DNA of 64,000 nucleotides. Origin: Yuukianura sp. NJ FZ-2021 (taxonomy: Eukaryota). The notes under the pieces were generated by a model. It was given only the letters and a program-made list of their open reading frames with translations, made no database searches and was not told where the DNA came from. Where the stretch lies: NCBI GenBank assembly GCA_046563655.1, contig CM102283.1, forward strand, positions 1,426,001-1,490,000, read 5' to 3'. The translations under genes were made by a program, and so were the position numbers. Positions 7,529 through 33,075 of the stretch are shown piece by piece; within the stretch, counting starts at the first letter, position 1, and each line of letters opens with the position of its first letter.

Positions 7529-9575
7529 TTTGATTAGTTTAAAACTGGAACAGTAGAAAATGGAGCAGAAAATCTTTTCTTCTAGAAATTTTCTTCTTCA
7601 AAAATCAGAATTTTTTTTTTCGGAAAGGCACAATCACAAAAATGGTCACAAAAAATCAAATCAATTTTGGAGTGAAGTCTTTAATGTTCCTACCAAAAGA
7701 GAATAACGAATGTTAATGTTCTGGAAGAAGCACAAAACTTTGCACAAAAACGACCTTTTGCGCAACTTTTTAAAATTTCGTACTTTCTCCAAAAAGTTTT
7801 TTTCTTTTTGCAGAGCGTTTGTTTTTGTTTTGTGATGTTTACGACTCACTTAGTGTCTCAGTTTTTTTGCTTTTTTTTTAAAAAAACACACACAAAATTG
7901 TTGTATTTTCCTTCGTTTTACTTTTAGTTCCAAGTTCCTTTTGTTGGTCGTAATGGAATTAACCTTGGTTTAAACTCTTGAATGGACTCCAGAGAGGAAC
8001 TGAACCAGACCAAAGACGCTGCTCTCAGACAAGGCTGAAACACGTAACGGCTCGCCGCGGCGGCGCGGTTTGTTCAAACTTTCTCCGTTTGGCCAAAGCA
8101 CAAAGATTTCTCGTATGTAGAACCATTGTTTCCCCAGTTTTCTCCCGCAAACAGCAGAAATTGCCAAAACAAATCAGGCTAATTCAAAAGTAACCAATCA
8201 GAGGAAGCCCATTTCCCGATCAAACTTAGCAATACGAAGTTAGTGTCTCTTGAAATTGGCGGCTTTTGATTGGCTCGTTTTGATTTGGCCGAATTGGAAC
8301 GTGAACTGCTCCTATTGTAAGAAACGAGGCAAACGGGGGATGCAGAGAGGCGTAATAAGCAGGCAAAGATGCTTTCACCTCCTCAGCAGCCAAAACTGAC
8401 TTTTCAGCTCAAAACGACTTCGGTGGATCTTCCAACCTTTTCTTGCAACTTTCTGTGAGGGAGTTCTTTTTTGGTGTGGAAACTTTCTCCATGCAAATAA
8501 CATATCCGCAAACCGGCCAAAAAATTTACATCGTCCAAAGTGCAATTCCCAGACCACAAGTTTCAATAAGTTCCTTTGAGCATTTGTTCGGAGCCGTTTG
8601 GGAATCACATTCTGATTCAACGATCTCTTTGATCCGAACAGGAAGGAAAGAAAACTGTTACGCATATTGTTACTACTTCAAAAAAAGTTATGAAAATATA
8701 GAACAAGAATTTCAAAAACAAAAAGAGTTTTGGAAATAAACTGAAAAATTGTTTCATCGCTGCTGCTACTCTAATCGATCTCTGATTTTAAGAAAAGAAA
8801 ATTCTTAACAAAATTTTCAAATTTTGTGGGAGAGTTTCCTTATCGGTCGGTTTTAATTGCTTACACAGCTTGTTTCTGTTTTGAATTTAAATTTGGCGGA
8901 TAGTTTTGAAACTTAAAAATGAAAAAGTTGCTAGATTTTGAAAAGCGCAGAATGAGAAAAGTTTCAAGTTTTTGGATTTTGGAAGTGAACGAACGGTTGA
9001 GAGAATTTTAATAAAAGTTTTTAGGACTTCTGCCCTTCCAAGCTTTGGAGAAAGCCTACAACCCTTGAAAATCCAACAGTAGACAGAAGGACTTCGTTTT
9101 TGGAACTTGTCCCACTAGAGTCCCACCCTTGCCCCACCTCCCCCCGCACACAAAATCGGTGGGGCGGATACAAACTGTAACTTTTTGTGTCTGTCTACTC
9201 CCAATTGAGACGTTGATTGAATGAAAGGTGTGAAAAGCCAAATAATGTTGCGGAAGTGTCGCATTTTCTTTTTAGAACTATGGAGGCTAATGAAGTCACT
9301 TCGTCATAGAAGCTGGCGCCAAATTCAAATTCTTTGGTGGGAATTATTTCCTGGACTATACATTTCTCTTAAATCCATCTTTTTCAATTTGAATTCATAG
9401 TAACTCCGAAGACAACTTTCTTTTTCAGAAATTAATTAGAATTCACTTGTAAATGGAGGGGCGAATTATACTTGTGCTGATGCTGCTAAGAAATCTCTTC
9501 AAACCGGGCCACTTCAACTCAACTTTTGAAATTTCAAGTGGATTTTCTTTCACTTTCTTTACATTTCAGGAACTA

Positions 9576-10431
9576 TTGTTCATCTATTTTAAGAAGGCGG
9601 GTTTGAAATTCGCGCAAAAGTTTTATTTTTGTTTACTGTAACCCTCGTTGACTTAAGGTAGCTGTTGCGCATGTGTAACATGTGCAACAGCAACTGCGCG
9701 CGAGTGTCTTCTTTGTTCAAAACAGGTCAATTCCTTATTTTCATTTTATCTTATGTTTAACGTGGTTTCTCTTTCGCTAATTAATTGTTACCTCCATCAA
9801 TAATGGGTAAAGGGAAATCTTTTTCCTGGCAATCGAAGGAGATGATTGCCAGTACAGTGCTAACGTTTCTAGAAGAGAAAAGAAAATTTGAGAACGAAGT
9901 GAAGTTGGGACACATGAAGCATTCGGATATTCCCATAGACTATCTGAATGTGACCGATAGAACTGCCAAAACATTGCAGGTACGCAAGTGAAACTTAACT
10001 TTGTGAAATGACTTGGCGATGCACGGCTGGCTTGTATCAGGCATGTCATTGAATTAGAAAACCTAATCATGGAAACTGAAAACTTAGCAAATACCTTTAT
10101 GAGAACAAATCAAGATCGTATAATTATCGATTTGGAAAATGGATCGTCATCCGACACTGAGTACAGCTCAGAATCCAGCTCAGAATCCAGCGAAGAAGAG
10201 AGCGATTAAGTTTTAAAAACAAATTTCACTTAATTAGGATATGGGTTGTCGTAATTAAACTTTTGTCCATGGGTAACCTTCAGAGGAATTTAGCGTCAAT
10301 TTCAAATTTACCTTTTCTGAGTACGATAAATTGGTCGCGCCTTAACTCAACCCGTCAAATTTTACTTGCGTTGCTACTAGGAACAGCGCAAAAATAAATT
10401 TGAAACCCGCCTTCTTAAAATAGATGAACTA
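9576..10431 (+). mobile_element. Internally deleted IS630/Tc1/mariner-type DNA transposon
   Basis: About 35-bp TIRs (T[T/A]GTTCATCTATTTTAAGAAGGCGGGTTT[G/C]AAATT) flanked by TA at 9574-75 and 10432-33. Inside are an N-terminal exon (ATG 9803, MGKGKSFSWQSKEMIASTVLTFLEEK...NVTDRTAKTLQ|gt at 9980) and a C-terminal piece (ACIRHVIELE...DRIIIDLENGSSSDTE...ESD*, stop 10209). Both resemble the ends of insect Tc1-like DDE transposases; the DDE core is absent. Confidence 0.75.
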
Positions 10432-10627
10432 TAGATCTTTCGTCTCCTATTTCTACAGTACACAATTCCTTTCACTGGATTCTCATATTAATTTCAGCCT
10501 TAGCCAATCCCCGTGGTCCACAACGTCCCGGGTATTTTCAAAAGTTCAAAATTTCAAAACCTCCACAACAACAAACTTTCTCTTTCAATTTCAATTTCAT
10601 CGGAAAGGGCTTTTCGAAGTAACTCTC

Positions 10628-10860
10628 ATCGCAAAACGTTTTTTCATTGCTACACTCTCGTTGCAAAACGTTTGGTTTGCGTCACTACTGTGCCAAAAAC
10701 GTTTTTTTTACGCGGCTGTTGTGTTACAAAACGTTTGTTTTCACTTGCATTTTTATTTCATAGCTAAGCATATTCAATTAAAGCTTCTTTGTTGCAAAAC
10801 GTTTTTTATGCATACTGTGTTCATGAAGAACATAAAGTGATAAGTTTTCACAACGTTTTC
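10628..10860. repeat. Minisatellite of AAAACGTTT palindromic cores at ~32-33 bp spacing
   Basis: aaaacgttt-type cores near 10633, 10665, 10696, 10728 and 10796, with a weaker copy near 10850. Confidence 0.55.
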
Positions 10861-11103
10861 TGTTATGGATCACCTAGAAGAATTAAGTTAACTAGGAATT
10901 AAGAATTAAGTTAAGGCTATAGGCTCACAGTGAGGTTAATATTAGGTTTGCTGCGTTGGGCAATGAGGTTGCCCAACCCTGTTTGAGTTTTGAGTTTTGG
11001 CGTTTCTGTTTCGAATTTGAATGGAGATGAGGAGGGAAGTGAGAGCCAAGAATTTCGTTGGCGTGGAGACAGTGTCCGACTAAGTTATGAGGAGCAACCG
11101 AAG

Positions 11104-11535
11104 CACAGTGGGGCCGATTGCTTCAAACAACGACAAGCGTTTCGGGGAAACAAATTGATTGTTAGAAAATACACAATTATGGAGACAAAACAGTCGCTAA
11201 ATTATCGACATAGCAACCGATAGTACAGCGCGATTTCAGTTTTTATGTTTAGTGAACTGGTTTTCCCCTCATAGACGCAATTTTTCACCAACTTCAAAAA
11301 TCAGTTAAAAATACTAAATTGGTAAAGTGGCACCAAGTGGCAGTCGGACTTGGTACGTGATGCTGTCTAGTTTTTATTAAGATATTCAGGTTATCTGTAG
11401 GTAATGGAGATTTTTGGAGGATTTGATTTTTGTAAATCCTGATTTTGGCATTCATTTTTAATGTAATTTCTAAAAATCAACTTAACGTTTCCATTGACAA
11501 CCGTGGCGCCGGTTTGAAGCAACGGCCCCACTGTG
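11104..11535. mobile_element. Non-autonomous Transib-like MITE, 432 bp
   Basis: Both ends begin CACAGTGGGGCCG(A)TTGCTTCAAAC (inverted), with imperfect extension to about 70 bp. Perfect 5-bp TSD CGAAG at 11099-11103 and 11536-11540. Confidence 0.8.
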
Positions 11536-12717
11536 CGAAGGAAGTCGCTGTTGTGAACGGTTTGAATTACCCTCCCGCCATTCCAACTACAAACCGGGAG
11601 TACATAGGTTCCAATTTGAGGAAGTTGAGTTAGTTGGGGAGTTCCATTAAGCATGAGCATTCCCCTCTGATTATGTCCAGAGGAACCCATCGTCGGAATG
11701 ACTTTATCCAAAGTGTTCTTGGACTTTTTCCATCCAGCGATGGGCATCACAGAGGCTCAAGTTGGGGCTTCATAAAAACAGTTATACAAACAAATGTGCA
11801 GAAACGGAAGGAAAGGGAAAGAGTCGTAGATAAGGAGAAAGCAGGGACGATGCCAAGGAGGGGGCAGGAGATGCACATACATGGAATTCATGGACGCACA
11901 GCTATGGACGGTGTCCAATCCACGGAAATGTAAACAAGAAAGTTTTGGTAATCAAGGAGAAAGTAGAGAAGATGCCAACGAGAAGAGAGAGACGACCATA
12001 ACATGACTTTCACGTACGGCAAATGACGCACAGAAATAAATTGACGGTTGCGTCTTAACAATTTATTTTATGTCATCCGTCCATAAGTGTCCTTAAATGT
12101 TTTGTCTTGCTTGGTCTTAAGTAACGGCCGGAAAGAGTCCGTTCAAAAATGTCCGGTAACTGATTATTACCAGCCTTTGGAGCTCAACTGACAAAAAAAA
12201 GAATATTACGGAATTTTTATGACACTGAATCTCAAGTTGCAACTTCTGCGCAGTTACAACTAATGAGACAAATTCAAAAAATGTCAAAAATGGATTCAAT
12301 TTCAAACTTCTCACTTTTCATAACAAATTGCTTCTGTTGGAACAGCTTTACTTGTGGTGAGAAAACCGGTTCAAAAACTGCTTACCAGTAAACCACGCCT
12401 TAGAATTCTTTTGAACAAATGACTCTTGCGTGTTTAAATGACCAAAATTTGTTACAACTGGACGTTTTTTGTTGAAATTTTTCTTTTTATGGTGAGGATT
12501 TTGTTGAAAATTAGGTTAAGATCTAAAAGATTTTTAGTAAAAATTTGTTTTTCCATAAACGACAACACCTATTTCGAAAGTTTCATGAAATTTTTGAAAT
12601 TTGTGGTTGTAAAGACTATTTTGCGTGAGTGTGATGAAGGTGAGTGATGGATGTGACACAAGCAACAGTCGGATTTTGTTTTTATGAAAGTTAAAATGAA
12701 TCACCTTTGGACTTTGG

Positions 12718-13226
12718 TGTGAGGAAGCAAAAGTAAGGTTGGCAGTGTTGTCCACTGCACCATGGCTACCTCCTGGCCCACTAGAGGTAAACAACCAGAC
12801 TTTGCTATCCTCCGTGTGACTGGCCTAGCCACACACCCCACAGGCCCCCGCACATTAAGACCTGGACCCCAGGTCTCAGCCTTCAAGATCCCACTATCAC
12901 ACTGGACAGACAGAGCACCTTATCAGTTGGGTCGGATCTGATAAAGTCTGGGAAGGGGAGTAGGCATCAGGGACGTAGCGTCTTTAAGACAGTTACCTAT
13001 TCTGCTGTCCAGCAGTCAATGGTCAACCCGGCTCAGGCTAGGGTATGACAAGAAAAATTTTCTTGGCCACGGGGGAATCGAAACCCGTCTGAGCCCCCAC
13101 ATGTGAGGAAGCAAAAGTAAGGTTGGCAGTGTTGTCCACTGCACCATGGCTACCTCCTTGCCCACTAGAGGTAAACAACCAGACTTTGCTATCCTCCGTG
13201 TGACTGGCCTAGCCACACACCCCACA
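12718..13226 (-). mobile_element. TRIM-like miniature non-autonomous LTR retroelement, 509 bp
   Basis: Two 125-bp direct repeats (12718-12842 and 13102-13226), each TG...CA and differing at one base. 4-bp TSD TTGG (12714-17, 13227-30). On the minus strand TGGGGGCTCAGACGGG follows the 5' LTR and resembles a tRNA-Pro PBS (TGGGGGCTCGTCCGGG). The 259-bp interior is non-coding. Confidence 0.85.
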
Positions 13227-13589
13227 TTGGACAGACCTTGCTAAAAGCATGTCGGTCAAAGGTTATTTTTTGAGGTCAAAATTTTGAAAATGAATAACAT
13301 CTCATTAGGTATTCAAACACTTTCAGCAGCTGAAAGAAAAGTACTTAATCAAAATCTAGTACAAAACTGCTGCGAACTTTCACCTTTTGTATTTTGTAGC
13401 TTTTTTGTTTCAAAAAAGTACTAAAACCTCTGAAGTCTTTTCCATTTATTTTTTCAACACTCACCAATAGATTTATGGTTTTCTAGCACCGCCAAAATTT
13501 GCTTGATTGGAAATTTTTTGAAAATTAAAAAACTTTTCTTTTCATTCGGGAAACATGCCGTGTTTTTATTAATTATTTTTTGTTTTTTC

Positions 13590-13609
13590 AGGTCATTGAC
13601 CTTTGACCT
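13590..13609. promoter_or_regulatory. Composite nuclear-receptor motif (perfect IR1 AGGTCAtTGACCT overlapping DR1 TGACCTtTGACCT) about 260 bp upstream of the AROM-derived ORF
   Basis: Motif read directly from the sequence; function is unproven. It also overlaps a polypyrimidine-CAG splice-acceptor-like site ending at 13591. Confidence 0.3.
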
Positions 13610-13864
13610 GGAACTGTATCAAGCTACTTTAATCCCAGCATGTTGGGATTTATATGGAACAGTATTTGGATAATTAAAATTTTAAACCACAAACCTCAAT
13701 CCTCTTAGATTTTTAATCATTTCCAGACCGTATCGCTAGAATGATTGACTTTTTGAAACCAGTTGCTAATTAGAAGTTGATCGATCAACAACTTCCTCAT
13801 CACACAAATTGTTCAACATTGCACTCCTTCTATAACAGCTTTTTTAGAAATTAATTCGTACAAC

Positions 13865-16291
13865 ATGAATTCAGACCAAGAGAAAATTGTGCTCGATGCG
13901 TTTCGTTTAGGCATTGCCTGTTCTGAACAACTTTTTAAACTTTTAGAAGAAAATGCCCGATGTATTTTGACTGGCGATTTGACAGCCGTGGAAGAGTTGA
14001 ATTCAGTTTTTCAAAAAGTTGAAAAAGCCACTGACGCTGTTACGGTTGAAAAAGTCCGAAATTTTGGAAAATCAATTGCAGTAATTTTGGAATCAAGTGG
14101 ATACTCGCCAAGGGACTCTTCTGCTTTGGGAATTCTAAAACAAGTTCAAATTTCGCGCCATCTCGGATTTTGTTCTCTCGTGACCTTGAACAGAGTGACG
14201 AGATGTTTGGCCAGCTACGGCTTTTCGACTCGTCTTGACCTCAGACGACCAGCAGTCATTTCTGCGCAAAACAGACAAAAAATGGCAATGATTCTGCGCA
14301 TTGGCCAATTTGACCTCGTGGAGGTCAATGACCTTTTCATTTCTCTGGTTCTGGAATCTCAGATTTCAGTAACTCCGAGTGGACCGATTCACTGTGCAAT
14401 GACAGTGCCTGGATCCAAGAGTATATCAAATAGAGTACTGCTGATGGCAGCGCTTGGTCATGGCACATGCGCAATCGAAGGCCTTCTGGATTCAGATGAC
14501 ATTGTAGCCATGCTGAAAAGTTTGGAACAACTTGGAGTTAGATTTGAATGGACTCAAGGGGGTCAAAGGTTAGTCGTCTACGGTTCAGACGGGAAATTCA
14601 AACAACCAGAACAACCACTCTATCTGAACAACTCCGGTACTTCGGCTCGGTTTCTAACGTCGGCGGTTTGCCTTGTTCAAAGTGAGAATGAAAACGGCGG
14701 GAAAGGCCGAGCATCTACGATTCTTACCGGAAATGCCCGAATGCAGGAAAGGCCGATCGGACCACTCGTTTCGGCTCTTCAGTCCAACGGTTGCGAAATT
14801 TCATACTTTGAAAATACCGGATGTTTGCCAATTTCCGTTGGCGCCAAAACTTTTTCTGGCGGGAAAGTTTTTATTGAAGGGAAAGTCAGCAGTCAATACG
14901 TGTCGTCAATTCTAATTTCGGCGCCATACGCTCAGACGCCGCTTACGCTTCAATTGGCCGAAGAAAATCCAGTTTCCCTGCCATACATTCTAATGACGGT
15001 GAAATTGATGCAGGATTTTGGAATCCCCGTGAAATTTCTGGCGCCAAACGAACTTCAAATTCCCACAGGCGTTTATGCCAATCCGGCTAAATTTTTGGTT
15101 GAACCTGACGCTTCTTCAGCTACGTACCTCCTTGCTATGGCAGCTATCACTGGTGGAGACGTTACTGTCCGGCATCTTGGATCGCAAAGTCTCCAAGGAG
15201 ACGCCAAGTTCTACGAAGCGCTGGTAGCAATGGGATGCGATGCTGTTCAAACTGAGCTAGAAACGAGGGTGCGTGGACCGACGGATAAGCGTCTGCGCAG
15301 TGTCAAGATTAACATGGAGACGCTGACAGATGCGTTCATGACAATCGCTGTCTTGGCAGCAGTGGCTGAAGGAAAAACTGAAATTCGGGGAATTACGAAT
15401 CAACGTGTCAAGGAATGCAACAGAATTGCAGTTATGGTGGAAGAATTGACTAAACTTGGAGTCAATTGTGGTGAGCTGGAAGACGGACTTTGGATAGAAG
15501 GAATTCAAAATTTTGAAAACTTCAAAACTCCCGCCTTCATAAATTGTCACGATGATCATAGGATTGCTTTGAGTTTTGCTGTCCTTGGTTCCAAAATTCC
15601 TGGAATTGTCATACTGGACAAAGAATGCACTTCTAAAACCTATCCAGGATTCTGGGATGACTGCAGAGCAATCCAGGTATCACTTTGCCCCGGTTCCAGA
15701 ATTTGCACAGCCAATCAAAACTCTTCGTCGATTTTCTCGACCAATGAAAACTTCCCGCCGACTTTCTTGGTGGGCATGCGTGGTTGCGGCAAAACGACTT
15801 TTGGCAAACTTGCAGCATCCGCCCTTGGCTTGTCGTTTCTCTGCATGGACCAAGTGCTGGAATCGCAATTCGGAGAATCCATTTCTTGCTTTGTTGAAAA
15901 ACACGGATGGGCGGAGTTTCGTGCCGAAGAAGAAAGACTTCTGCGCAGACTCGTGGAATCAAATCCAATAAACACAATAGTCTCTTGTGGTGGTGGAGTA
16001 GTTGAAACTCCAGGGTGCCTTGACCTGTTAGGTCAATGCCTTTTGGTCATTAACATCGAAAGACCTTGGGAAGAAGTCAAATTTACTCTTCTGCAACCAA
16101 GTGACTCTCGACCGGAACTTCCCGAACAACTTGAAGTCGTGTGGAATCGGAGACGCCCTTTATATAAAAAATGTTCCCGCTACGAATTTCGAACGAGTTT
16201 CGACAACTCGGCGGCAGTCATTGAAAAATCTACTCAAGATTTTATCCAATTTTTAGAAAAGTTGTTAGCAAACCATAAACAAATCGCTTAA
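13865..16291 (+). CDS. Truncated AROM-derived protein, 808 aa: degenerate C-terminal DHQ-synthase remnant + EPSP synthase + shikimate kinase (aro1/aroM-like, horizontal-transfer candidate)
   Basis: Intronless ORF with CAAC-ATG start context. EPSPS motifs: PGSKSISNR (14408), LNNSGTSARFL, RMQERPI, VSSQYVSS, EPDASSA, TDAF, RVKECNRI, DDHRIA, KTYPGFW. Shikimate kinase from ~15761: Walker A GMRGCGKT, FRAEE, SCGGG, SRP, RRPLY. The N-terminal ~170 aa align by eye to the AROM DHQS C-domain (NFGKSIA for NFGHSIGH; SRHLG...RCLASYGF). Domain order matches AROM. Confidence 0.93.
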   Translation: MNSDQEKIVLDAFRLGIACSEQLFKLLEENARCILTGDLTAVEELNSVFQKVEKATDAVTVEKVRNFGKSIAVILESSGYSPRDSSALGILKQVQISRHLGFCSLVTLNRVTRCLASYGFSTRLDLRRPAVISAQNRQKMAMILRIGQFDLVEVNDLFISLVLESQISVTPSGPIHCAMTVPGSKSISNRVLLMAALGHGTCAIEGLLDSDDIVAMLKSLEQLGVRFEWTQGGQRLVVYGSDGKFKQPEQPLYLNNSGTSARFLTSAVCLVQSENENGGKGRASTILTGNARMQERPIGPLVSALQSNGCEISYFENTGCLPISVGAKTFSGGKVFIEGKVSSQYVSSILISAPYAQTPLTLQLAEENPVSLPYILMTVKLMQDFGIPVKFLAPNELQIPTGVYANPAKFLVEPDASSATYLLAMAAITGGDVTVRHLGSQSLQGDAKFYEALVAMGCDAVQTELETRVRGPTDKRLRSVKINMETLTDAFMTIAVLAAVAEGKTEIRGITNQRVKECNRIAVMVEELTKLGVNCGELEDGLWIEGIQNFENFKTPAFINCHDDHRIALSFAVLGSKIPGIVILDKECTSKTYPGFWDDCRAIQVSLCPGSRICTANQNSSSIFSTNENFPPTFLVGMRGCGKTTFGKLAASALGLSFLCMDQVLESQFGESISCFVEKHGWAEFRAEEERLLRRLVESNPINTIVSCGGGVVETPGCLDLLGQCLLVINIERPWEEVKFTLLQPSDSRPELPEQLEVVWNRRRPLYKKCSRYEFRTSFDNSAAVIEKSTQDFIQFLEKLLANHKQIA

Positions 16292-16819
16292 TCCAAACAT
16301 TATATAGATAAAAATCACTTAAAATGTTAGAAGGTTGTAAATATATTCAAAATATTTCAAAGATCCTTTAAATTATGAATTTCAGAAGAATTTTTAAAAG
16401 TCTTCATTAGAAAAAAATCGTTGATACAATGATTTCCAGAAAATCACTGAAAAGCCGGCCCGTATAAAATTTTTACAAGGTGTAAAAAATCGTTGAAGCT
16501 TTCGGTTTCACAAAAATTATTGTCGAACCTCTTATTAGTCATAAGCTGAACATCGAAAGCATGCGTTGTTGAAACAAATCAAAAAATCGTTCAAACTCTT
16601 TTAGTTTTAAGAAAATCCTCAAAAATCTCAGTTGTTGAAATATGAAAAAAACGTTCAAACTCTTTTAATTCTAAGAAAATCATCAATATGCTATGCAACT
16701 CGGTTTTTAGAAACACATGATTACTGCACTGAACTTTTAATCCAGAACATGACCCAGAAAAATTTACAGCATAGATAAAGATGAGATTACATACACAAAT
16801 CTGATGCAAATAGTTGACA

Positions 16820-17625
16820 CGCTTACATGTTTAGACCAATAACACAACAATGTCTCTTGACAGTTCATTAACTTAAGTTAAAGACTTCAATTTACGTAAT
16901 TTTGGAATGAAATATTAAGTTTTAGTAATTATTACTTAATAATTTATCTTAACAATTTCGTCCTTTAAGCAGAAAGTATTATACGCTGTCCAGTCAGCTC
17001 CCTACGACTACCATCCGTCATCATCATGATTAGTTATTGCCTGACCTGCGAATTTTGGTAGCTCTAACATATGCGAGCAATTGCTCGAGCAATTCTATTT
17101 CCGCATCGAGCGTTTGGACATCCATTCTGTCAATTTTGTACTTCATCGTACGAAGCTTCGTATCATAATCGACGGCCTGGAAAAGTGCTCAATAGTCATA
17201 CGCCGAAATTTCAAATTGGTTTTGTCGCTTTATGTAAAGTTACCTTCTTCGGGCTTTTCTCTGCAACGACAGCCATTGAACGGTTCGAGGTACTAGATCC
17301 TGCTTCAAATCAAATCTGCGTGTTCCTTCCTTCAATGTCTTCAAGTCATTGGGAAAATTTCTAAACCGTACAAGTACTTCAAGCCGATACAGACGCAAAT
17401 ATTTTGAAAAAATCCAACCTAGCTTAGCTTTACAACAACGCCAACGGTCAATACCCCGGTGGTCTCCCTCTGGCATTCAACTCTTGGAAATGGCCTTGCC
17501 AAATATAAAAATAAAATTCGAACGTCCTTCAAAGGATGAACGTTGTCCGTTGAAAAGTTGAAGGGACACATGCAACTGCGAGATAACTTCAAAGATACAA
17601 TCCTGCCATTTTATTCTTCAAATCC
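16820..17625 (-). pseudogene. Copy 1 of a tandemly duplicated small gene, deleted relative to copy 2
   Basis: Aligns to 17975-19275 but lacks the segments ~18455-18743 and ~18950-19155 of copy 2. Keeps the donor at 17243 and the terminal exon 17176-17030 (AVDYDTKLRTMKYKIDRMDVQTLDAEIELLEQLLAYVRATKIRRSGNN*). Confidence 0.6.
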
Positions 17626-17689
17626 AACTAAGGTCATAAAGGTATTTGAATTTCAATTAATGAAAATGGAAATCTAATTAATAGTAACT

Positions 17690-17946
17690 AATCGTAATTT
17701 TGAATTTCTCCTAAACCTTTCCTAAATAACCTCCATGTTTAATGAATAAATTGAATTAAGGAAGTTATTAAATAATAAATTTTTGAAGTTCCCCGCGCTT
17801 CCAGGCTCCAGTTCATTCGTTCCGTAAACCCAGAAACGAAATGCACTGCTCAAAACTTTGATGGATTACTTCCTTTACTGCATCGCCATCTGGTCTTGGA
17901 CTGGTGTAGTTTAAGTCCCTCCTCAGTAAAGAAGCCTTGATAACAT
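17690..17946 (-). pseudogene. Displaced fragment of the 3' end and 3' flank of the ZAD-ZF gene at 27953-29984
   Basis: Encodes KEVIHQSFEQCISFLGLRNE*, nearly identical to the C-terminus at 27953-28186. DNA similarity extends into the 3' flank (17690-17800 vs 27820-27930). The upstream part is frameshifted. Confidence 0.75.
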
Positions 17947-17974
17947 GAGTCATTACTAGTTTATTAGTTGACGT

Positions 17975-19275
17975 ACTTAAATGTTTGGACCAATAGCAGA
18001 CACAACCATGTGTCTTGACAGTTTTCAGACTTAAAGTTAAAGGGTTCAATCAACTTACGTAACTTTTGAATGAAATATTAAGTTTTAGTAATTATTACTA
18101 ATAAGTTATCTTAACAAATTCGTCGTTCAAGTAGAAAGCACCATCATTCAATGTCCAGCTTCATCAGCACCACCTTCATAGTTTGGTCCACCAAATCGGC
18201 GCATGCGCTGTGATTTGAAATGTTCGAACAATTGCTCGTAAATTTTCTCTTCTTTAAGAAACGTTTCGTTGTCCATGCGGTCCACCTTGAACTTCATGGT
18301 ACGAAGCTTCGTATCATAATAATCCACCTAGAAAAGCGCTCAATTGTCATAAGCCGTAATTTCAAATTGGTTTTGTCGCTTTATGTAACGTTACCTTTTT
18401 CGGGCTTTTCTCACTAGCGACAGCCATTGACCTGTTCGATGTGCTGGATCCCGCACCCGATTCCGTTGGGTTCCTAACTACACTTCTTGTTGGAATTTCT
18501 TCCAAGGATTGATGTATGTCTTCCCAGTCCCTAGAGAATTAATTCGACATTACTTCTACCTTTTACGTATGGCAATTTGAAAATGAAACTAAAACATAGA
18601 TTTTGCTCAAATGAAGACTTTCTTAGTCTTACATTAAAACTAATTTTACCTGTTTGTCCACGCTATGTGCAAAAATTATAACCTATTTTAGGATTATTAA
18701 GGATTTGCCAATCGGAAAGGTGAACAGAATCGCTGTAAACGTGTCAAATCAAATCTGCATGTTCCTTCCTTCAATGTCTTCAAGTCATTGGGAAACTTTC
18801 TAAACCGTACAAGTACTTCAAGCCGGTACAGACAAATTTTGAATAAATCCAACCTAGTTTAGCTTTACAACAACGCCAACGGTCATTACCCCCGGTGTTC
18901 TCCCTCTGGCATTCAACTCTTGGAAATGGCCTTGCTAAGTATAAAAACAAAATATTTTTTTAAGAATGAATTCCTTTATTTTCTTAGAATATAATTGTTT
19001 TACAAAGAACGTCGAACTGAGGAAAAAAGAAAGAATAGAAAAAAAAGAAGAAAACTAAATTTTGAGTTTCGAATTATAAAGTAAATTAAACATTTATTAT
19101 AAAGTATATAAAGTAAATTTATAACTTAATTTCAATAGATTTTTGGTTAATTTCAATAAAAGCAAAATTCGAACGTCCTTCAAAGGATGAACCTTGTCCG
19201 TTGAAAAGTTGAAGGGACACATTAAACTGATAGACAACTTCAAAGAACCAATCCTGCCAGTTTCTTCAAATCCAA
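17975..19275 (-). pseudogene. Copy 2 of the duplicated small gene; last two exons intact, upstream part not reconstructable
   Basis: Exon 18530-18395 (DWEDIHQSLEEIPTRS...EKSPKK|gtaacg) splices in frame to 18327-18148 (VDYYDTKLRTMKFKVDRMDNETFLKEEKIYEQLFEHFK...AGH*). Upstream frames contain stops. Confidence 0.55.
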
Positions 19276-20240
19276 CAAAAGTCGGGAATTTTACAGGAAA
19301 TTTCCTTTAAGACTCAACTGGCAATTTTTTTTTCAGTAAAAACGTTTTTAGCATGAAAATAACTGTATATTTTTGCATCAAATGACACGAAATACGGCAG
19401 CGTTAATTTTTTTTCTCGAGACATTGAGCATGCAGTGCTACTGCGGTTGAAAGAAAGTGTTTCGCATAACATAATTTTGGTGTATGATGACAAGGGGGGT
19501 TTAGAATTAAAAGTGAAAGCGAATACAAGTGAGAAGAGCTGGAAGAGGGGGAGGGGGGTTAAAGGGGGGCTATTGGCTGTGGTTTTCTCTGAATAATGAA
19601 TTATGAAATTCCAACTGGGTGCAGAGAAAGCAAAGGAAGGAGATCTGCAGATGGTGATAATGAGTCCACGCACGACACGACTTCAAAGCCACCGCCAGCA
19701 TCCAGCATCCCGTAAGAGCCAGAGAGGACGTGCCACAATTTCATAAAATTCGCGAGTTGGCCTCTCCCCTACACTTTCCGCTGCCACGGCCACGGTGTAG
19801 CAGCGTCATACATCATCCCAGTCCTAAGTGGAGCAGAGGATGCTTGGGTAGTCTCCAGAACCGCCGTTATGCTTTCGTGTCCACAACGATGTCTCCATCC
19901 GCAACTCAAAAATATGGAAATCAGAATCAAAGCCTTTAACCTCTCTGAGTCCGTTAGTGGTTTGGTCACAAGCTGTTCCCGCCTGGAAAAAAAATAGCAT
20001 CAACAACATAACGATTTTTGGATTTAAATAAACCACGAGAGTACTTTCTAACATGGCGCTCACATTTGCTTTAAAAAATTTGATTTTAACCGCAACGTCG
20101 TTAGGTCATATAATCTGTATTCCAAAAGCTAGAGTTTTTATAATGGAGTGTTTCGTTACGTGTTTCATTTGCGTTAGTAAATTTTAAAACTTCTATTGGT
20201 TAGAAACTTCTAGAAATACTGAAATAACGATTTTGGGTTA

Positions 20241-20359
20241 CCGTAAATTTCCAAATACAACCCCCGGGCACTATTTCTTTTGACACCTCTCGGGGGAAGG
20301 GGCACTAATAGGGACCCGGGGCAGTATTTGTGAGAGGGGTTGTATTTGGAAATTTACGG
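20241..20359. mobile_element. 119-bp Tc1/mariner-type MITE
   Basis: Perfect 24-bp TIR CCGTAAATTTCCAAATACAACCCC, with TA on both sides (20239-40, 20360-61). Confidence 0.8.
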
Positions 20360-20693
20360 TATTTCAGATCTGGTTTTTGCAGAAACAGAAACAAAGTACA
20401 TCTATGCATGTCTTTTAAAAATGTGTTAGTTCAATGCCAACTGCGGTGGGCCAGTTAAACCGCAAACGGAGCTGCAAGCTGAAACACCTTTCGAAATTTG
20501 CCCTTACAGAAGTTTAAGAAAAAACGTTTAATTTTAACTTCATTTTCTAATTGACAGAACAGTACACAATTTATTTATATTTCATATTGTCCTGCAACAT
20601 GTACAATGATACAATATTTCATAACAATGAAACATATGTCGCTTTGATCTGACAACTCTTTGCGGACAATGAGTCGTGTTACGGAGAAAAATG

Positions 20694-20702
20694 TATATAA
20701 AA
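20694..20702 (+). promoter_or_regulatory. Candidate TATA box of the secreted-protein gene
   Basis: TATATAAAA about 90 bp upstream of the ATG at 20785. Confidence 0.4.
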
Positions 20703-20784
20703 CAGAAATAAATGCTACGGTTTCTAAAATTATATCTTAATTTACTTTCCCGTAATTAGGTTTCCAAGTTTGTGGCAAAAAAAA

Positions 20785-22100
20785 ATGTTGAAAGCCCTAA
20801 TTTTTGTTGTAGGCGTTAGCGTGGCCTTGGGCAATTCCGATTTTGAAGGTAGGCGAAGCTGATTTATAGAACATAACCTGACTTAATTTATAATAAAACT
20901 AATTAAGTACACATTATTTGAATCGCAGAATTCGACTCCAAGTCCGCGGCCGCCGCCCAGTGTGGAGCACAAAAGGACGTCGACCTGTCATTTTTCAACC
21001 TTAAAGTAGCTGAGGTCAGAACGCTTCTCGCCGACAAGCTTGAGAAATCTGCAGCAGAAGAAACCTTCAGTAGCCGCGATGCGTCAGCAAACTCCATTCA
21101 AACCAGCGTGTCCGAGAGCGGAATGGGAGTCGTCCGCAAAACCGTGCATTTCCCCAACAAAACCCGGGTTTTAGTCAAAGTCATGAAAACCAACAAGGCC
21201 ACAGGGAACTTTGCCACAGACTTGACCAGGACACCGGAAAACAAAGTAGACGCCAGTACCTCGGGCAACTTTGACTTTGGCGTTGACTTGCAAGCTTTTA
21301 CCAAAGATACGAACGTACACAGGACGGTCAGCGGAGGCTCATCACTGACAGTAAAGTCGTCAACTGCATTCATCCAGCTAGGTGATACCAAGGTTTTACA
21401 AACTAATGCTTCAGCATCGGCTTCCACTTCGGTTTCCTCCGTTGATGCTTCAGGATCCGGCGGCAAAGGCCGTAGCTTTACGGCACAGGCGACCGCAACC
21501 TCATCAGCTGACACGTTTATCTTTTCAAAGAAGTGTTTCATATCTCGGGTCAAGTTTGACTTTGGCATCAAAGTCGACGGTATACGTGTGACTGCTTCGA
21601 TTGCTGGAAAAGGCAACGGCCGTGTCTTTACTCGTGTTCTCGTTGCTAACAAAAATGGAACTTCGGTTATTCATAGCTACGCAGAATTTAAAATCCAAAC
21701 TGAGCTGGACATACAAGGAAAAAATAAGTCCTTAAACAAGTCCTTTCAAGGGACCCAAAATATAACTATTACTGCTCATACCGAAACGATTGTTCGGAAG
21801 GTCAATGGTGCTGATGAAAACAGCGGTAGGGTTTTTGTTGTTTCAAATGAAATCAAGCTTCGAGTGGGCGTCCAAACTGTCTTGGACAACGGACCTAAGA
21901 TAGTATCAAGCGGTGGTCAAATTCTGTTTAGAAATTCACGGTTCAATATTCCCGTCTCTGCCTCTACGTTTGAAAATAAGGATAATGGTGATGGATCCGG
22001 TATCATGACAGACAGCATTTTGACGAAACAGGAACAAGGTGACGACGTTTTGGTCAACAACGACTTTGTCAACAATGTTGTGTCATCAGCAATAAACTAA
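20785..22100 (+). CDS. Secreted, Ser/Thr/Gly/Val-rich, predicted beta-rich protein of unknown family, 411 aa, 2 coding exons
   Basis: Exon 1 20785-20848 (MLKALIFVVGVSVALGNSDFE, signal peptide), 80-nt GT-AG intron 20849-20928, exon 2 20929-22100 in frame with the listed 330-aa ORF. AATAAA at 22125. Confidence 0.85.
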
Positions 22101-27195: not shown

Positions 27196-27952
27196 TGTTT
27201 CAAAGTTCAACAGTGCTTTCGGCAACAATTGTTTCATTGCTCGATCCGATCACCAGCTTTGATGCTTCGCGTTCGATTCCTAATAAATCAGGTTCCGCTC
27301 CGGGGACTCAATTATAAACTGACAAAAACTGGACAAAACTTGTAACGCACGCGGTAAGTTGCACTGCTTGAAGTTTGCACAAGCACAGGACAAACCTGGA
27401 CACTGGATCATTTTGTCTCCCGCCACTATGTTTGAAATCGTAAGGAAATTTGAGACACCCATTGCAACAACCTTTACCATTAATGTAATCAGAATTCAGA
27501 AATGAACAATTAATTCTCAAGGTTATTTGAATTTTAGCAGTAGTTCAAATAAACCCGGAATTCACCTTGCACAGCACGGTGAAGGCATCACCTTGACCTT
27601 TAACAAAGTAATTACTTCTTTTAGTCATTTCATACTTTATTAAAATTATCCTGTTAGCGTCAACATTTGAAAAATATTTCCAAAATCCCACCTAAAATAT
27701 CATTACTATAGGTTTTTTTTTTTATAATTTCATCTTGAGTGTACCTCTCAAGGTTAAAGTCAAACTCATGAGCCTATATTGTGCCATAAAAAAAAACTGA
27801 AGTGACATCTAAGGTAGCTCGTAACTCTGAATTTCTCCTCCATCGTTGCTAAACAAATCATCCAATATCCTCAACATTTGAGAAATAAATTAAATAGCGC
27901 AACTTATTGAATAATCAATGTTGGAGTTTCCAGTCCTTAGAGTGTCCTCAGC

Positions 27953-29984
27953 TCATTCGTTCCTTAAACCCAGAAAGGAAACGCACTGCTGAAAGCTTTG
28001 ATGGATTACGTCCTTACTGCATCGTGCTGTGGACTTGGATTGATGTACGTTAAGGTCCTCGTTCCGTAAACCCAGAAACGAAATGCACTGTTCAAAACTT
28101 TTATGGATTACTTCCTTACTGCAACGACCTCTGCTCTTGGACTGATGTACTTTAAGTCCATCCTCAGTAAAGAAGCCCTGATAACATTTACTACAAAAGT
28201 ACTGGAAGTCTCTGCAATGTTCAAGTCTCGTGTGTCGTTCAAGAGCATCAACTGATGTGAGGAATTGGACGGAACAGCCTGCGACAGTACAGAAGTACCA
28301 TGACTCTGGTTCTGGATGTACGGTTTTCATGTGGAAATTTTTTAACGCCGCTGATGAGAACGTTTTTGGACAGTTGGGACATGGCAGTCTTGGTTTGAAA
28401 CTGGTGTTCAGCGATTTCACATCTCCTTTCCGTTTTCGATTTGCTGCTAACTTCATGCGGTCGATTAGTTGAGGAGTGTTGTTTTCCGAGTAAAACGGCC
28501 CATCACATCGATCAAGTTGTAACTTGGCTAGCTTCAACCGAAAGTATCCGTTCGGCCGCGTCATTATTCGTTCTAAAAGAGAAAGATAAAGCTTTGTAAT
28601 TGTATAACGTTTCGTTTCACTTAATACGAACACACATTTACCTAGGTATCTTGGAGCTGGATGGTCACCGCGATTCAAGGGTTGGTCTTCGTAATTTCGG
28701 ATTTCCATCACATCCGTTTGGTTTGTATGTAAATTATGCTGAGGTTGACAGAATTCTGCGGATTCATGGAATTAATATTATAATTCGAAATAATCCGACT
28801 AAAGGCTATGCTGATTGTTGAAAACGCTACCGGAATTATTTGCTGGTGTGTCATGAAGCCCCATCATGCCTAAACGATGGAGCCTGGTTGCAGCAGAACT
28901 ATGTTTTCTGGGTTGGTAGTATTTGTAGTATGCCACTTTCTTCTGGCATTGCTCACCGGTAACACGCAATCCAGAGATTTTTCCAATTTCCTCCGCGATT
29001 TCGTCATAAATATGAATCTTATTCGAATATTTGGCGCTGAGTTGACTACTTCGATCCCGGCAGAGTTTAAGCAAAAGTTCTAGATCATCGCCACTGAATC
29101 TAGTGTGAGAATTCTGAGGTGATGGAATGGTAGCATTATGATTGGACCAGTTGTCGTCGTCACTCTCTTGCTTGATCTGATCAACATGGTCGATATTATC
29201 ATTATGTTCGTCGCCAACGTCGTCATCGTTATGACCCTCCAGCGTATAATCCATTTCTGTGTCAGTATAACTTTGATTCACATCGTAGCCGTATCCATTC
29301 AATGACAGAATTGGCTCAACTGCCATATTGCTATGAAGTGCACCATCAATAATGTATGCAACCTGATGTGGAGTACCATTGAGTAGTAAACCTGAAACGT
29401 TCATACAATCAAAATGTTTCCTTATAATCCCAATTCTAGAAATTTTCTATAGTTATCGTTGTAGTTTATTTTGATTTTGCGTTTCTAGCTTACAATTAAC
29501 CAAGTCTTCGCGTAGGTCGATTGCCGACGTTTGGTTAGCGACAAAGTCCGACTCTGTGCCATGCTCCCCTGAGAAACTATTCTGGAAGGCCGTCCTAAGT
29601 TTGGATGAAACTTCCTTTACATTATTTTGAGTTTCAGCTATCAGCATTAGCAATTGGTGACCTTCTGCTGCAATTCTGCAGCAGCTAACACACAGTAGTG
29701 TTTGTGGTGGTTTTCCCTTCCAAATTGCAGTATTTCGAGGTTGGAAATTGAGGAGATGAGGTACCGATTCCAGTATTTCGGGAATCAGATGTTGCGAAAA
29801 CGAAGCATGGGCATAAATCGTTCGGCAGCATAGGATACACTGATCGTGATCGGAAGTAGTACCTCGTGGGTCCGCCAAGTGTCCTATGAAGAAAGAGCAA
29901 GTTCATACATATAAAAAAACTTCCGGTAAGGAAACAATTCAATAAGTGAAGTAACTCACCTAACTCTCTTCCAACTTGAAACAT
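27953..29984 (-). CDS. ZAD + Myb/SANT-like + 3 zinc-finger (2 C2H2, 1 atypical) transcription factor, ~569 aa (paralog B)
   Basis: Exons 29984-29960, 29883-29494, 29391-28831, 28755-28642 and 28572-27953, all phase-1 GT-AG introns. ZAD CILC...CVSC; Myb/SANT-like FSGDDLELLLKLC...IYDEIAEEI...VTGEQCQKK; fingers starting CPNC, CTVAGC, CSKC. Confidence 0.85.
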
Positions 29985-30330: not shown

Positions 30331-33075
30331 TCAACTTCTAGAGTCGCCTTGCCGACAAATGAGTTTGTGTCTGCCAAGGTTCTTCGTCGATGGAAATCCT
30401 TCGCCGCACTTTTCACAACGAACTCTTATTTGTGGGTCATGAACGACTTGAATGTGGGCTTTCAATGACTTCTTGCTGGCAAGGGACCTAGGACAATGTG
30501 GACACTGGACAGAAGGGACTCCACCATCGTGTCGCTTGAGATGGTCCTGTAGGTGTTGGTAGTATTTAAAACTGGATGGACATCGGTCGCACTGAAAATT
30601 CCTTTCGCCAGTGTGCTTGATATTGTGCATCCGAAGTAGTGCTGGACTATAAAAGTTAGCTTTACATCCCGGAAACGTACAAGGATATCTTACTATTGGT
30701 TGTTTTTCGGCAGTCGTATCGGGATGCTGCATCCGTACATGTCTGTTGAGGCCATCTATTCTGGCGTAAAATGCTCCACACACGGCACATGTGTATTTGT
30801 CTCTGCATTTGTCATGAACCTTTGCTTGATGATCTCTAAGGCCACCGCTGCGGGTGAACGCGACACTGCAGATCTCACAAACGAAGTTCCTTGCTAAATG
30901 TCGGTCCCTTTTGTGTCCAGAAAGTAATGCCCGGGTTCGGAACTTGAGGGGACAAGTATCGCAGCTGAAAGCTCGGAGCGATTCGTCGTGAACGATGGAC
31001 TCGTGGAATTTTAGAGCCGACTCGGTCAAGAACCCTTGACGACATGTGCCAATGTTGCAGAAGTACTGCAGGGCTCCGCCATGAACGTCTCTGACATGAT
31101 TTTCAAGGAGTAAAGGTGACTTGAATACTTCGGCGGAACAACCGTCGACTGAGCACGAGTACCGTTCTGATTTGCGGTGTACGGCAGCAACATGCTGAAT
31201 CTTTAGTGACTTTTCTGGAAACTTTTGCTGGCAGTATCGGCAAGAGTATTGATAATTACTACTACTGATATCTCTCGGATGTTCGGCTGCAACGTGCTGC
31301 ACCTTCTGTATCTTTTCTGGGAATTTCTGTGTGCAGTACCGACAAGAGTATTGTTTTCTCCTACCGGGTTCTCTCTTCCTCTTCTTTGATTCGTCCTCCA
31401 GTTCGCAAACTTTGAACTTGTTATGACTGGTTCGTTTCCTTTTCGGTTTGTGTTGAAGCACATTTTGATTCGACTTCGGAAGGATTCGGACAAGTTGTAA
31501 TTTCGCCAATTTCAGCCGGAACGATCCATTTGGTAGCATGACTGTACGTTCTAAGAAATATTGTTTTAGAGAGCTTTAGAATTTTTAGTTTCTAAAAGCC
31601 AAAAGCCAAACATAAATGCGAAAGCCCAAATGTTTTATGTCAGTAATACCTAAAACGCTTAGATCCTGCGCAGAAAGACTTTGTTCAAATTCGTATATCG
31701 GATCATAATCAGGATCCGAAGAATTATGTTCCTCCGGGTCATTACTATGCCTTATCCTCTCCTCAACTTCACCGTCGATTTCGTCCTTTTTCTCGTTTCG
31801 AAATATTAGATGTTTACCGGATTCTACGGAATAATGAAGCAATGCATTTGCATTTTATTAAAAACAAAGTGATTTGAGAGAAAGAATAAGTTATTCTGAA
31901 TAACTTTTGATTAGTAAACATACGATTAGAATGACCATCTTCAGCTGCAATACTCCTTTCACCAGCACCGCTATGTCTTGCTTTGTGTTTCAATTTCATG
32001 AGTTTTCTCCTGCATTGGTCACCGGTAACTCGGAGTGAAGTGGCTTTCCCAATTGCCTTTGCCATTTCTTCATAAATTGGAGCTTTATCAGTATGTTTGT
32101 CCGATAACTCACTGCTACGTTCATGGCAGAGTTTCATCAGAAGACCAACTTCAATGTCGCCGAACTTCAGACGGGGTTTTCTGGGAACAACGGTATCATG
32201 ACTCTTCAGTTTATCTTCATCCACAGTTTTTTCTTTTGTAATATCACCGTCGTCGACAGCGTTACTTGCTTCCGGCGTAATCCTGCTGTCGAACTGATCG
32301 TGATTATCCTCCTCCAGCGGTAAGGGTGAGTCTGGAAAACTTTGCGGCTCATCTTCGTCATGTTTCACCAACACAAGACTTGCTTCGGTAATAATACTGT
32401 TACGACTCGTAATCTCAGGAAGGTCAGTGTCTTGATGAAGATCAGTCTTGAACTGAAGGCCTAAAACGATTTACAATTACAATATACTTCACGTGATATG
32501 ACTGAATATCGATTATACTGTAGTTGAAGTTTCTATCCTTACAGTTAACCAACTCTTCTCGCAATCTTGTTGATGCAGTTTTGTTGCCCACAAAGGCCGA
32601 ATGCCTACTATGACCTTCTGATAAACTGTTGTTGATGGTCACCAGTACTTTTGATGTAACTTGCTTTATATTCTTTCGAGTTTCGACCAGTAGCTGTAGC
32701 AATTGATGTCCTTCTGCTGCGATCCTACAACATTGTCCGCAAAGCAGTGCGTTTGGTGAGTGCCCCTTCCAAATTGTTTTATTCCGAGGTTGAAAATCGA
32801 GGAGAAGAGGTACACATTCAATTACTTTTGGAATTAGTTGTGGAGTAGGAGCGTCAGAGAAAGTGGCAGAAATGAATTGGCAGCAAAATATACATTGATC
32901 ACAAGCATCGTGTTCTGGATCAATGGCAAGCCCGACTCCTGAAAAATAATATAAAAAAAAAAACAAAATTAGTCTTATTTTTCGATTACAATGAACTTAA
33001 TAAATACTTACCTGGGTCTCCAACTCCAACATCTTGCCGCCAACCGGTAACAACACTTGCTGCTTGGCTCGTCAT
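30331..33075 (-). CDS. ZAD + Myb/SANT-like + 11 zinc-finger (10 C2H2, 1 C2HC) transcription factor, ~796 aa (paralog A)
   Basis: Exons 33075-33012, 32938-32543, 32460-31924, 31823-31650 and 31550-30331, all phase-1 GT-AG introns. ZAD CIFC...CGQC; Myb/SANT-like FGDIEVGLLMKLC...IYEEMAKAI...VTGDQCRRK; HTGERNF linker. Exon structure is the same as paralog B. Confidence 0.88.

Follow-up and report, generated by a model that had tools for sequence, protein, structure and literature searches.

A trimmed EPSP synthase–shikimate kinase gene of oomycete AROM type, probably acquired by and kept in a pancrustacean nuclear genome

In a 64,000-nucleotide stretch of DNA from Yuukianura sp. NJ FZ-2021 (contig CM102283.1 of GenBank assembly GCA_046563655.1, positions 1,426,001 to 1,490,000; hereafter the window, numbered from its first letter), we analysed an open reading frame (ORF) that is predicted to encode two enzymes of the shikimate pathway. 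The results indicate that this ORF is a fragment of an oomycete-type AROM gene, which probably entered a pancrustacean nuclear genome by an old horizontal gene transfer (HGT) and has since persisted there under selection, trimmed and free of introns, as a gene for shikimate kinase (SK) and 5-enolpyruvylshikimate-3-phosphate (EPSP) synthase (EPSPS); we assign this reading a probability of about 0.72. To our knowledge, and in the textbook account, animals have neither of these enzymes. A metabolic gene acquired by an arthropod through HGT is a finding of a known kind; the trimmed AROM architecture and the oomycete-type source are new here.

Results

The ORF encodes a three-part fragment of AROM

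The ORF starts with an ATG at position 13865 of the plus strand and continues without introns for 808 codons to a TAA stop ending at 16291, precisely as an earlier reading of the letters (the original prediction) had described it. The stop-to-stop frame around it (13781–16291, preceded by an in-frame TGA at 13778–13780) comprises 836 codons, and the second-longest frame of the whole window has 414; at the stop frequency of the window (0.053 per codon), the probability that such a frame is open by chance is about 1e-20. The GC content is about 0.45–0.46 within the ORF versus 0.32–0.39 in the adjoining flanks. At third codon positions (GC3) the ORF has a value of 0.406, comparable to the 0.41–0.50 of four other ORFs in the window, which shows that its composition has been ameliorated to that of the host. 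The gene of the closest relative, on the metagenome contig L001 (see below), has a GC3 of 0.55 and lies within AT-rich flanks.

A sequence search against solved structures returned the fungal pentafunctional AROM chains 6hqv_A and 7u5s_A as top matches, with query residues 65–802 aligned continuously to residues 274–1043 of the Chaetomium chain 6hqv_A (E 6.8e-159). When six AROM-type proteins were compared with the whole window by tblastn, the ORF spanned residues 188–992 of P0002, an oomycete-type AROM; the other parts of AROM (the N-domain of 3-dehydroquinate synthase (DHQS), DHQase and SDH) were not found in the window, where all matches outside the ORF had E values of at least 1.9. Since the Pfam domain limits of P0002 place the start of DHQS_C at 185, the end of SKI at 971 and the start of DHquinase_I at 1011, the ORF is cut at domain boundaries on both ends, running from the DHQS_C start to the linker that follows SK. 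The resulting parts are as follows.

13865–16291, plus strand: coding sequence, 808 codons and TAA, aligning to AROM proteins over its full length without a break
13865–14359, plus strand: residues 1–165, what is left of the helical C-domain of DHQS (match to 1dqs_A, DHQS_C start of P0002)
14360–15673, plus strand: EPSPS (3-phosphoshikimate 1-carboxyvinyltransferase), class I-like, residues 166–603 (Pfam, TIGR01356)
15674–15754, plus strand: poorly conserved linker between EPSPS and SK, residues 604–630 (low identity, low pLDDT)
15755–16288, plus strand: SK domain, residues 631–808 (Pfam SKI)

The order of EPSPS and SK is that of AROM, as had been predicted. Of the five domains that a pentafunctional AROM carries on one chain, the window protein has two, EPSPS and SK, plus the C-terminal half of a third, DHQS; the gene is AROM-derived but not itself an AROM. 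An AlphaFold2 model, built on a 40-row alignment, has a mean pLDDT of 90.4 and a pTM of 0.75; in a Foldseek search with this model, 6hqv_A ranked first (TMq 0.67), and the predicted fold also matches 7u5s. The linker shows 36% identity to the closest relative, P0001, over 22 aligned codons, and its pLDDT falls below 50 at residues 619–622. A scan for bacterial promoters and terminators revealed no enrichment (3 promoter-like sites versus 6.7 expected), and Rfam gave no match across the window.

Two catalytic domains look intact beside a dead DHQS half

To describe conservation, we define near-invariant positions as alignment columns with a conservation of 95% or more across 169 full-length (at least 1200 aa) AROM relatives. 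The EPSPS domain matches Pfam EPSP_synthase (PF00275) over residues 170–598 (E 6.5e-111, 371.4 bits versus a threshold of 22.8), covering profile positions 2–415 of 417, and it exceeds the cutoff of the NCBIfam aroA equivalog TIGR01356 (419.5 versus 287.25 bits). Near-invariant positions are kept at 82 of 83 sites, M569L being the sole change. Those kept include K185, S186, R190, G258, T259, R292, S342, S343, Q344, D415, K516, E517, R520, H565, R566 and K591, some of which are presumed to be catalytic by analogy with E. coli EPSPS. In the Foldseek comparison, this domain resembles the class I enzyme of E. coli (1g6s; TMt 0.91, 36% identity) more closely than CP4 (2gg4 and 2ggd; TMt about 0.80, 23–24% identity), and the sequence matches agree (258 bits to 1g6s versus 93 bits to CP4). 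The predicted fold is the two-domain inside-out alpha/beta fold of EPSPS, and by fold and by sequence the domain is like class I (the class of glyphosate-sensitive enzymes) rather than class II.

The SK domain matches Pfam SKI (PF01202) at residues 639–791 (E 1.5e-29, 103.7 bits versus 22.1). It does not reach the cutoffs of the bacterial SK equivalogs (AroL, 69.8 versus 161; AroK, 48.8 versus 195), a shortfall that could be anticipated in a eukaryotic domain that is part of a fusion. Fifteen of its 17 near-invariant positions are kept; one of the two misses, R808, is an artefact of the alignment end, and the other, D660C, is considered in the Discussion. Residues G637, G642, the P-loop lysine K643 (codon 15791–15793), D662, R686, G709–G711, R749 and R763 are retained.

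The part that precedes EPSPS had been overlooked in the original prediction, which spoke of a fusion of EPSPS and SK; that description holds for the two intact-looking domains, and it missed both the DHQS remnant and the change at residue 660. The alignment to the AROM chain, together with a weak match of the DHQS chain 1dqs_A to residues 68–128 (E 4.2e-5), identifies the first 165 or so residues as the C-terminal half of DHQS, although Pfam DHQS_C was not called in the protein at E ≤ 0.01. Only two of nine near-invariant positions are kept in this part, and the seven changes include H69K, E72A and H80Y. The lysine at 69 (codon 14069–14071) replaces a near-invariant histidine and is common to P0001. 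With the N-domain absent and this histidine replaced by lysine, the remnant is, judging from sequence, catalytically dead, and the protein does not qualify as a DHQS or EEVS-like sugar-phosphate cyclase, which would have an N-terminal nucleotide-binding domain as well as metal-binding residues in the C-domain. AlphaFold2 predicts the remnant to be helical with a pLDDT of 85–94, a confidence that may be inflated because the alignment holds intact DHQS domains; according to this model, the dead domain is probably still folded.

The closest relatives are trimmed proteins within an oomycete-type AROM clade

Relatives were searched among 5.8 billion clustered proteins, and the best 120 of 917 matches were listed. 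At the top stands P0001 (801 aa, 59% identity), which has the same two Pfam domains and is encoded on a 2961-bp metagenome contig (L001); among these 120 it is followed by oomycete-type AROMs at 45–48% identity and then by fungi at about 40–42%. The oomycetes named among the matches are Nothophytophthora (P0008), Peronosclerospora and two Aphanomyces (one of them P0016). An exhaustive representative search ranks P0004 first (639 aa, 55%). No animal homologue occurs among the best 120 of the 917 matches or the best 150 of the exhaustive representative search. A protein identical to that of the window is absent from the protein collection, where P0001, P0004 and P0025 are singletons. A metagenome scan gave one close locus, L001, and the other 79 loci kept are ordinary AROMs with 35–45% identity; the contig of P0004 is not among them.

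Several of these relatives share the build of the window protein. P0001 begins at the position homologous to the start of the window ORF, and both P0001 and P0004 end just after SK. These two, together with P0018, P0019, P0020, P0022 and P0025, lack DHQase, have a dead or missing DHQS and belong to the same clade as the window protein; SK is retained with an identical end point in eight trimmed proteins. P0004 may be without a DHQS remnant altogether, its contig being too short to tell. P0018, P0019, P0020 and P0022 (977–1004 aa) show a weak DHQS_C match and no DHQS N-domain by Pfam; their N-termini, however, can still be aligned with the N-domain of DHQS in P0002, although its conserved motifs have been replaced. 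Unlike the window protein, this group still carries a decayed DHQS N-domain, on a stem branch of 1.26. As a side observation, P0018, P0019, P0020, P0022, P0025 and P0324 are fast-evolving AROM remnants with a decayed full-length DHQS and no DHQase that share this stem, and the first four of them keep 77–79 of the 83 near-invariant positions in EPSPS and 16 of 16–17 in SK. The P0018 group may mark another transfer, or the same one.

A 64-row quick tree and a careful 34-row IQ-TREE tree (LG+C20+F+G4) agree with each other. The window protein groups with P0001 (support 100/99), and these two group with P0004 (100/99), on long stem branches (0.52 and 0.68). All four oomycetes that bear a name, the P0018 group and this trio belong to one 22-row clade (100/100), and the rows of the six named fungi make up a clade of their own (100/100). 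The branching order within the 22-row clade is not resolved by the trees. An approximately unbiased (AU) test did not reject the grouping of the eight trimmed proteins into one clade (p = 0.40, delta lnL 0.9); this group was defined after inspection of the tree, and the non-rejection does not show that it is a clade. On these sequences, the donor is best described as oomycete-type, a label that comes from four named rows only. These data bear out the view that the gene derives from AROM and not from a bacterial aroA, and that it nests, with full support, in a non-animal donor clade; oomycetes had been among the donors proposed for it. Together with the animal-type neighbours, the host-like GC3 and the constraint described below, this nesting supports the proposed horizontal acquisition.

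EPSPS and SK evolve under constraint

Identity between the window protein and oomycete-type AROMs is 58–60% in EPSPS, 40–41% in SK and 20–25% in DHQS_C; among the intact oomycete-type AROMs themselves, the corresponding values are 64–71%, 38–45% and 57–62%. In DHQS_C, the window protein is 44% identical to P0001. A codon comparison with the gene on L001, which is likewise intronless, gave synonymous differences (pS) of 0.73–0.78, which is saturated, and nonsynonymous differences (pN) of 0.20 in EPSPS, 0.32 in SK and 0.40 in the DHQS remnant. With pN at 0.20–0.32 against a saturated pS, the two catalytic domains bear the mark of purifying selection. As far as these sequences tell, EPSPS and SK evolve at native-like rates, and relaxed constraint is limited to the DHQS remnant. 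Three variants of the ORF are listed in the sequencing runs described below, two of them synonymous and one K577R.

The gene lies in an arthropod-type, structurally variable neighbourhood

The ORF is contiguous with animal genes in the window. The main features around it are the following.

27953–28771 and 30331–31575, minus strand: finger exons of two tandem paralogous C2H2 zinc-finger genes (Pfam zf-C2H2)
29453–29902 and 32442–32996, minus strand: N-terminal ORFs of these two genes, with CxxC...CxxC in ZAD-like spacing (motif scan)
51255–51713, plus strand: immunoglobulin (Ig) V-set-like, Beat-like exon (Pfam V-set, E 5.4e-5, below the gathering score)
12713–13227, strand not assigned: 513-bp element with 125-bp direct repeats at 12718–12842 and 13102–13226, 99.2% identical (self-BLAST, joints)
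17305–19356, strand not assigned: duplicated polymorphic block 3' of the ORF (joints 17549>19356 and 17513>19194; self-BLAST)

The relatives of the zinc-finger genes are animal zinc-finger proteins, the best being P0121 at 36%, with no close named taxon. The relatives of the Ig exon are P0374 (79%), the springtail Orchesella dallaii (55%), three Daphnia (50–52%) and the termite Cryptotermes (46%), and its nearest atlas clusters are mostly from Arthropoda. On the basis of these genes, we regard the host as a pancrustacean arthropod. The original prediction had described the flanks as holding Dpr/DIP-like, ZAD zinc-finger and Beat-like genes. The C2H2 fingers stand, as does a weak Beat-like assignment of the Ig exon, whose best solved structure is Drosophila Beaten path Vb (9np7_A, E 0.11 only); Pfam did not call a ZAD (zf-AD) domain in the zinc-finger region, where ZAD-like motif spacing alone was seen, and a strict Ig motif scan found nothing. 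Among 20 neighbouring long ORFs searched with Pfam, four of the first ten had a match (C2H2 twice, Myb_DNA-bind_4 and V-set), and one of the second ten had a sub-threshold match to Pet100. The Myb_DNA-bind_4 match, a weak one, is in the ORF at 31814–32470.

The sequencing runs listed for the stretch are five DNA runs, with no RNA run among them. X1–X4 come from one sample, and X5 belongs to a different study and has a different organism label. Contigs of four runs were compared over window positions 9000–22000. Several small elements near the ORF occur in only part of the contigs and at very high depth, in agreement with the small transposons that had been predicted there. The 513-bp element, about 640 bp 5' of the start codon, is missing from some contigs of X1, X2 and X5 (joint 12713>13227); its appearance suggests either a small, polymorphic mobile element or a deletion mediated by the repeats. 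On the 3' side, contigs of all four runs compared skip about 1.7–1.8 kb, which reveals structural polymorphism within 16811–19356. Loose contig ends near 15504, within the ORF, were judged spurious, as they fall in an A/T-rich low-complexity stretch. In the bin 11170–11603, contig depth is 10–30 times that of its neighbours, pointing to a high-copy repeat family common to both organism labels.

Some further features of the neighbourhood were also recorded. Local duplications relate 16811–17303 to 17965–18454 (74%), 17305–17517 to 18744–18953 (92.5%) and 17505–17635 to 19156–19283 (88%). Two more presence/absence elements lie at 9573–10432 (858 bp) and 11098–11536 (437 bp). A second long unbroken ORF (20922–22100, plus strand; 392 aa, rich in Ser, Thr and Val; GC 0.46) is located 4.6 kb 3' of the EPSPS–SK gene; no Pfam match was found for it, its best atlas score of 0.77 is within noise, and its nearest clusters are bacterial hypothetical proteins.

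Discussion

Alternative explanations

Several observations weigh against an old, selected transfer, and we set them out here with the explanations that they would favour. One of them concerns time rather than function: P0001 and P0004 come from metagenome contigs, and the inference of long-term constraint assumes that they and the window gene go back to one shared acquisition and not to a donor lineage that was already trimmed.

The strongest competitor, though an unlikely one, is that the integration is real and the two-step shikimate function has been lost, so that selection acts on EPSPS alone or the protein has been reused outside metabolism with an altered SK. Such a protein could form EPSP from externally supplied shikimate-3-phosphate, or it could have taken up a new carboxyvinyl-transfer or binding role. 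The case for it centres on residue 660 (codon 15842–15844), where the D-x-D motif has Cys in place of its first Asp. D occupies this position in 98.8% of the 169 reference sequences, P0001 shares the C of the window protein, and P0004 has N, so the change is clade-wide. In an alignment to the solved shikimate kinase 1l4u_A, C660 stands opposite D32, which we take to be Mg2+-binding, and D662, K643 and R686 stand opposite D34, K15 and R58, with the GGG loop kept. From this alignment, D660C could weaken or alter the kinase activity. The lower pN of EPSPS than of SK, the unreached bacterial SK cutoffs (AroL among them) and the long stem branches of the trio point the same way. However, the identity of the SK domain to oomycete-type AROMs is at the level found among the intact ones; the P-loop Lys, D662, R686, the GGG loop, R749 and R763 are all retained; and SK has been kept, with the same end point, in all eight trimmed relatives.

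A quite improbable explanation is an assembly chimera or contaminant, in which arthropod DNA was wrongly fused to the ORF of an oomycete-like microbe that inhabits the animal or its surface. Oomycetes are indeed the nearest relatives that bear a name, and the GC content of the ORF (0.45) is above that of its immediate flanks (0.33–0.39); GC and GC3, on the other hand, are like those of other coding ORFs in the window. The original prediction had named linkage and even depth across the ORF as a check. The 5' junction is bridged, though by a short contig only (497 nt, record 9 of X2, 13612–14108), whereas no listed contig crosses the 3' junction by at least 31 nt, record 3 of X1 stopping 17 nt past the stop codon. 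In X1, the contig depth of the ORF bins (61–88) does not depart from that of the non-repeat bins nearby (44–93), which is only weak evidence, as the runs consist of contigs. The sample shared by X1–X4 is probably the source of the assembly itself, so that X1–X3 are not independent of it.

In the run with the other organism label, the ORF is covered about as deeply as the flanks on either side, which speaks against a mis-join. The piece of this run internal to the ORF (14993–15558) differs by 36 substitutions (36/566) without a gap; its flank pieces at 11536–12104, 12075–13631, 17312–17875 and 19356–19492 have 4–34 gap letters each, and the one at 19759–20367 has none. The gap-free ORF piece next to mostly gapped flanks counts in favour of the main reading; a point against it is that the ORF piece differs from most flanks in its lack of indels alone, its substitution level being no lower than theirs. 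Further arguments against a contaminant are that, among the best 120 of 917 matches, identity to any oomycete-type protein is 45–48%, so the sequence is not that of a known associate; that the named oomycete proteins do not show this trimmed build, in which DHQS is reduced to a dead remnant and DHQase is gone; and that a piece of the 3' flank (17692–17946) has a paralogous copy at 27819–28187, beside a zinc-finger ORF 10 kb away (self-BLAST).

That the ORF is a young relic, a recent neutral insertion still open by chance, is hardly credible: it is intronless and no canonical AATAAA or ATTAAA was found within 700 nt past its stop, but an open frame of this length has the very low chance probability given above, the composition is already host-like, 97 of 100 near-invariant positions in the catalytic domains are kept despite about 50% protein divergence from donor-type sequences, and pS is saturated against the gene of P0001 while pN is low.

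Comparison with known systems

The window protein is collinear with fungal AROM (Aro1) and with the oomycete-type AROM (DHQS–EPSPS–SK–DHQase, as in P0002, P0008 and P0016), with which it shares the domain order. It differs from them in the absence of the DHQS N-domain, DHQase and SDH and in the loss of seven of nine near-invariant residues in the DHQS C-domain, and its gene differs from AROM genes in sitting in an arthropod-type neighbourhood.

Shikimate genes were claimed to have been horizontally transferred into the genome of the sea anemone Nematostella vectensis (Starcevic et al. 2008; PMC3018139, PMC4237138); these were traced to bacteria (Tenacibaculum-like) and to a dinoflagellate, and a similar bacterial associate was noted (PMC3018139). 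The window gene differs from this case in its oomycete-type AROM source, its trimmed fusion and its long history of divergence. Chorismate mutase has been horizontally acquired in hemipteran insects and plant-parasitic nematodes, and in the nematodes it is proposed to manipulate the shikimate pathway of the host plant (PMC4943190). Like the window gene, it is an enzyme of shikimate and chorismate metabolism that animals have acquired and retained; unlike it, it acts one step past chorismate and is not a part of AROM. HGT candidates of bdelloid rotifers include matches to shikimate biosynthesis (PMC11258130).

The vertebrate protein annotated as 'pentafunctional AROM polypeptide-like' is EEVS, a DHQS-like sugar-phosphate cyclase for which an algal or stramenopile HGT was suggested (PMC4426668). 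EEVS corresponds to the part that appears truncated and dead in the window protein, whose putative working parts are EPSPS and SK. An Artemia franciscana gene with the same label, artfr2034g00020, is among the top 20 genes induced by anoxia (LogFC 1.88; PMC8406910, Table 4), and the main text of that paper discusses neither shikimate nor horizontal transfer. We rejected this gene as evidence: the label is given in animals to EEVS, and the gene could be EEVS-like or of EPSPS type; for the same reason, it is not equated with the ORF. In the portions of the literature available to us, no EPSPS, SK or AROM-derived gene is reported from an arthropod, and supplementary HGT tables of arthropod genome papers might list one; the words shikimate, chorismate and EPSP do not occur in the main text of the Folsomia genome paper.

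Proposed function and significance

If both catalytic domains work as the same domains do in AROM, SK would phosphorylate shikimate to shikimate-3-phosphate, and the adjoining EPSPS would condense this product with phosphoenolpyruvate to EPSP, the two being consecutive steps in AROM as well. The role left to the DHQS remnant would be that of a structural scaffold alone. On this reading, the gene would be transcribed and both domains active, the shikimate would be supplied by diet or microbes, and the EPSP formed would have a metabolic fate.

A further-reaching idea, which we hold as tentative and on balance doubtful, is that an arthropod lineage, probably of soil or aquatic habitat, runs its own partial shikimate pathway, in which an oomycete-derived EPSPS–SK makes EPSP from dietary or microbial shikimate, and that the eight trimmed proteins are one undescribed family of AROM remnants descended from one old eukaryote-to-animal transfer. 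The original prediction had likewise suggested that dietary shikimate could be salvaged towards chorismate products. If this were true, an acquired or symbiont chorismate synthase would lead the EPSP on to chorismate-derived products, and the arthropods concerned would be direct molecular targets of glyphosate. The EPSPS pathway has been stated to be missing from soil invertebrates, some of which glyphosate nevertheless affects (PMC8226473).

Taken conservatively, the finding is a well-supported new case of HGT with an unusual trimmed architecture. Both the safety rationale of glyphosate and the textbooks rest on the premise that animals lack EPSPS, and an old, selected transfer of this gene, if true, would provide a direct animal target for glyphosate effects. 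It would also represent a rare transfer of core metabolism from a eukaryote, of oomycete type, to an animal. Moreover, it would amount to a natural experiment on which parts of AROM can stand alone, with EPSPS and SK evolving at native rates and half of DHQS left as a scaffold, and it would offer an entry point into the use that animals may make of shikimate from food or microbes.

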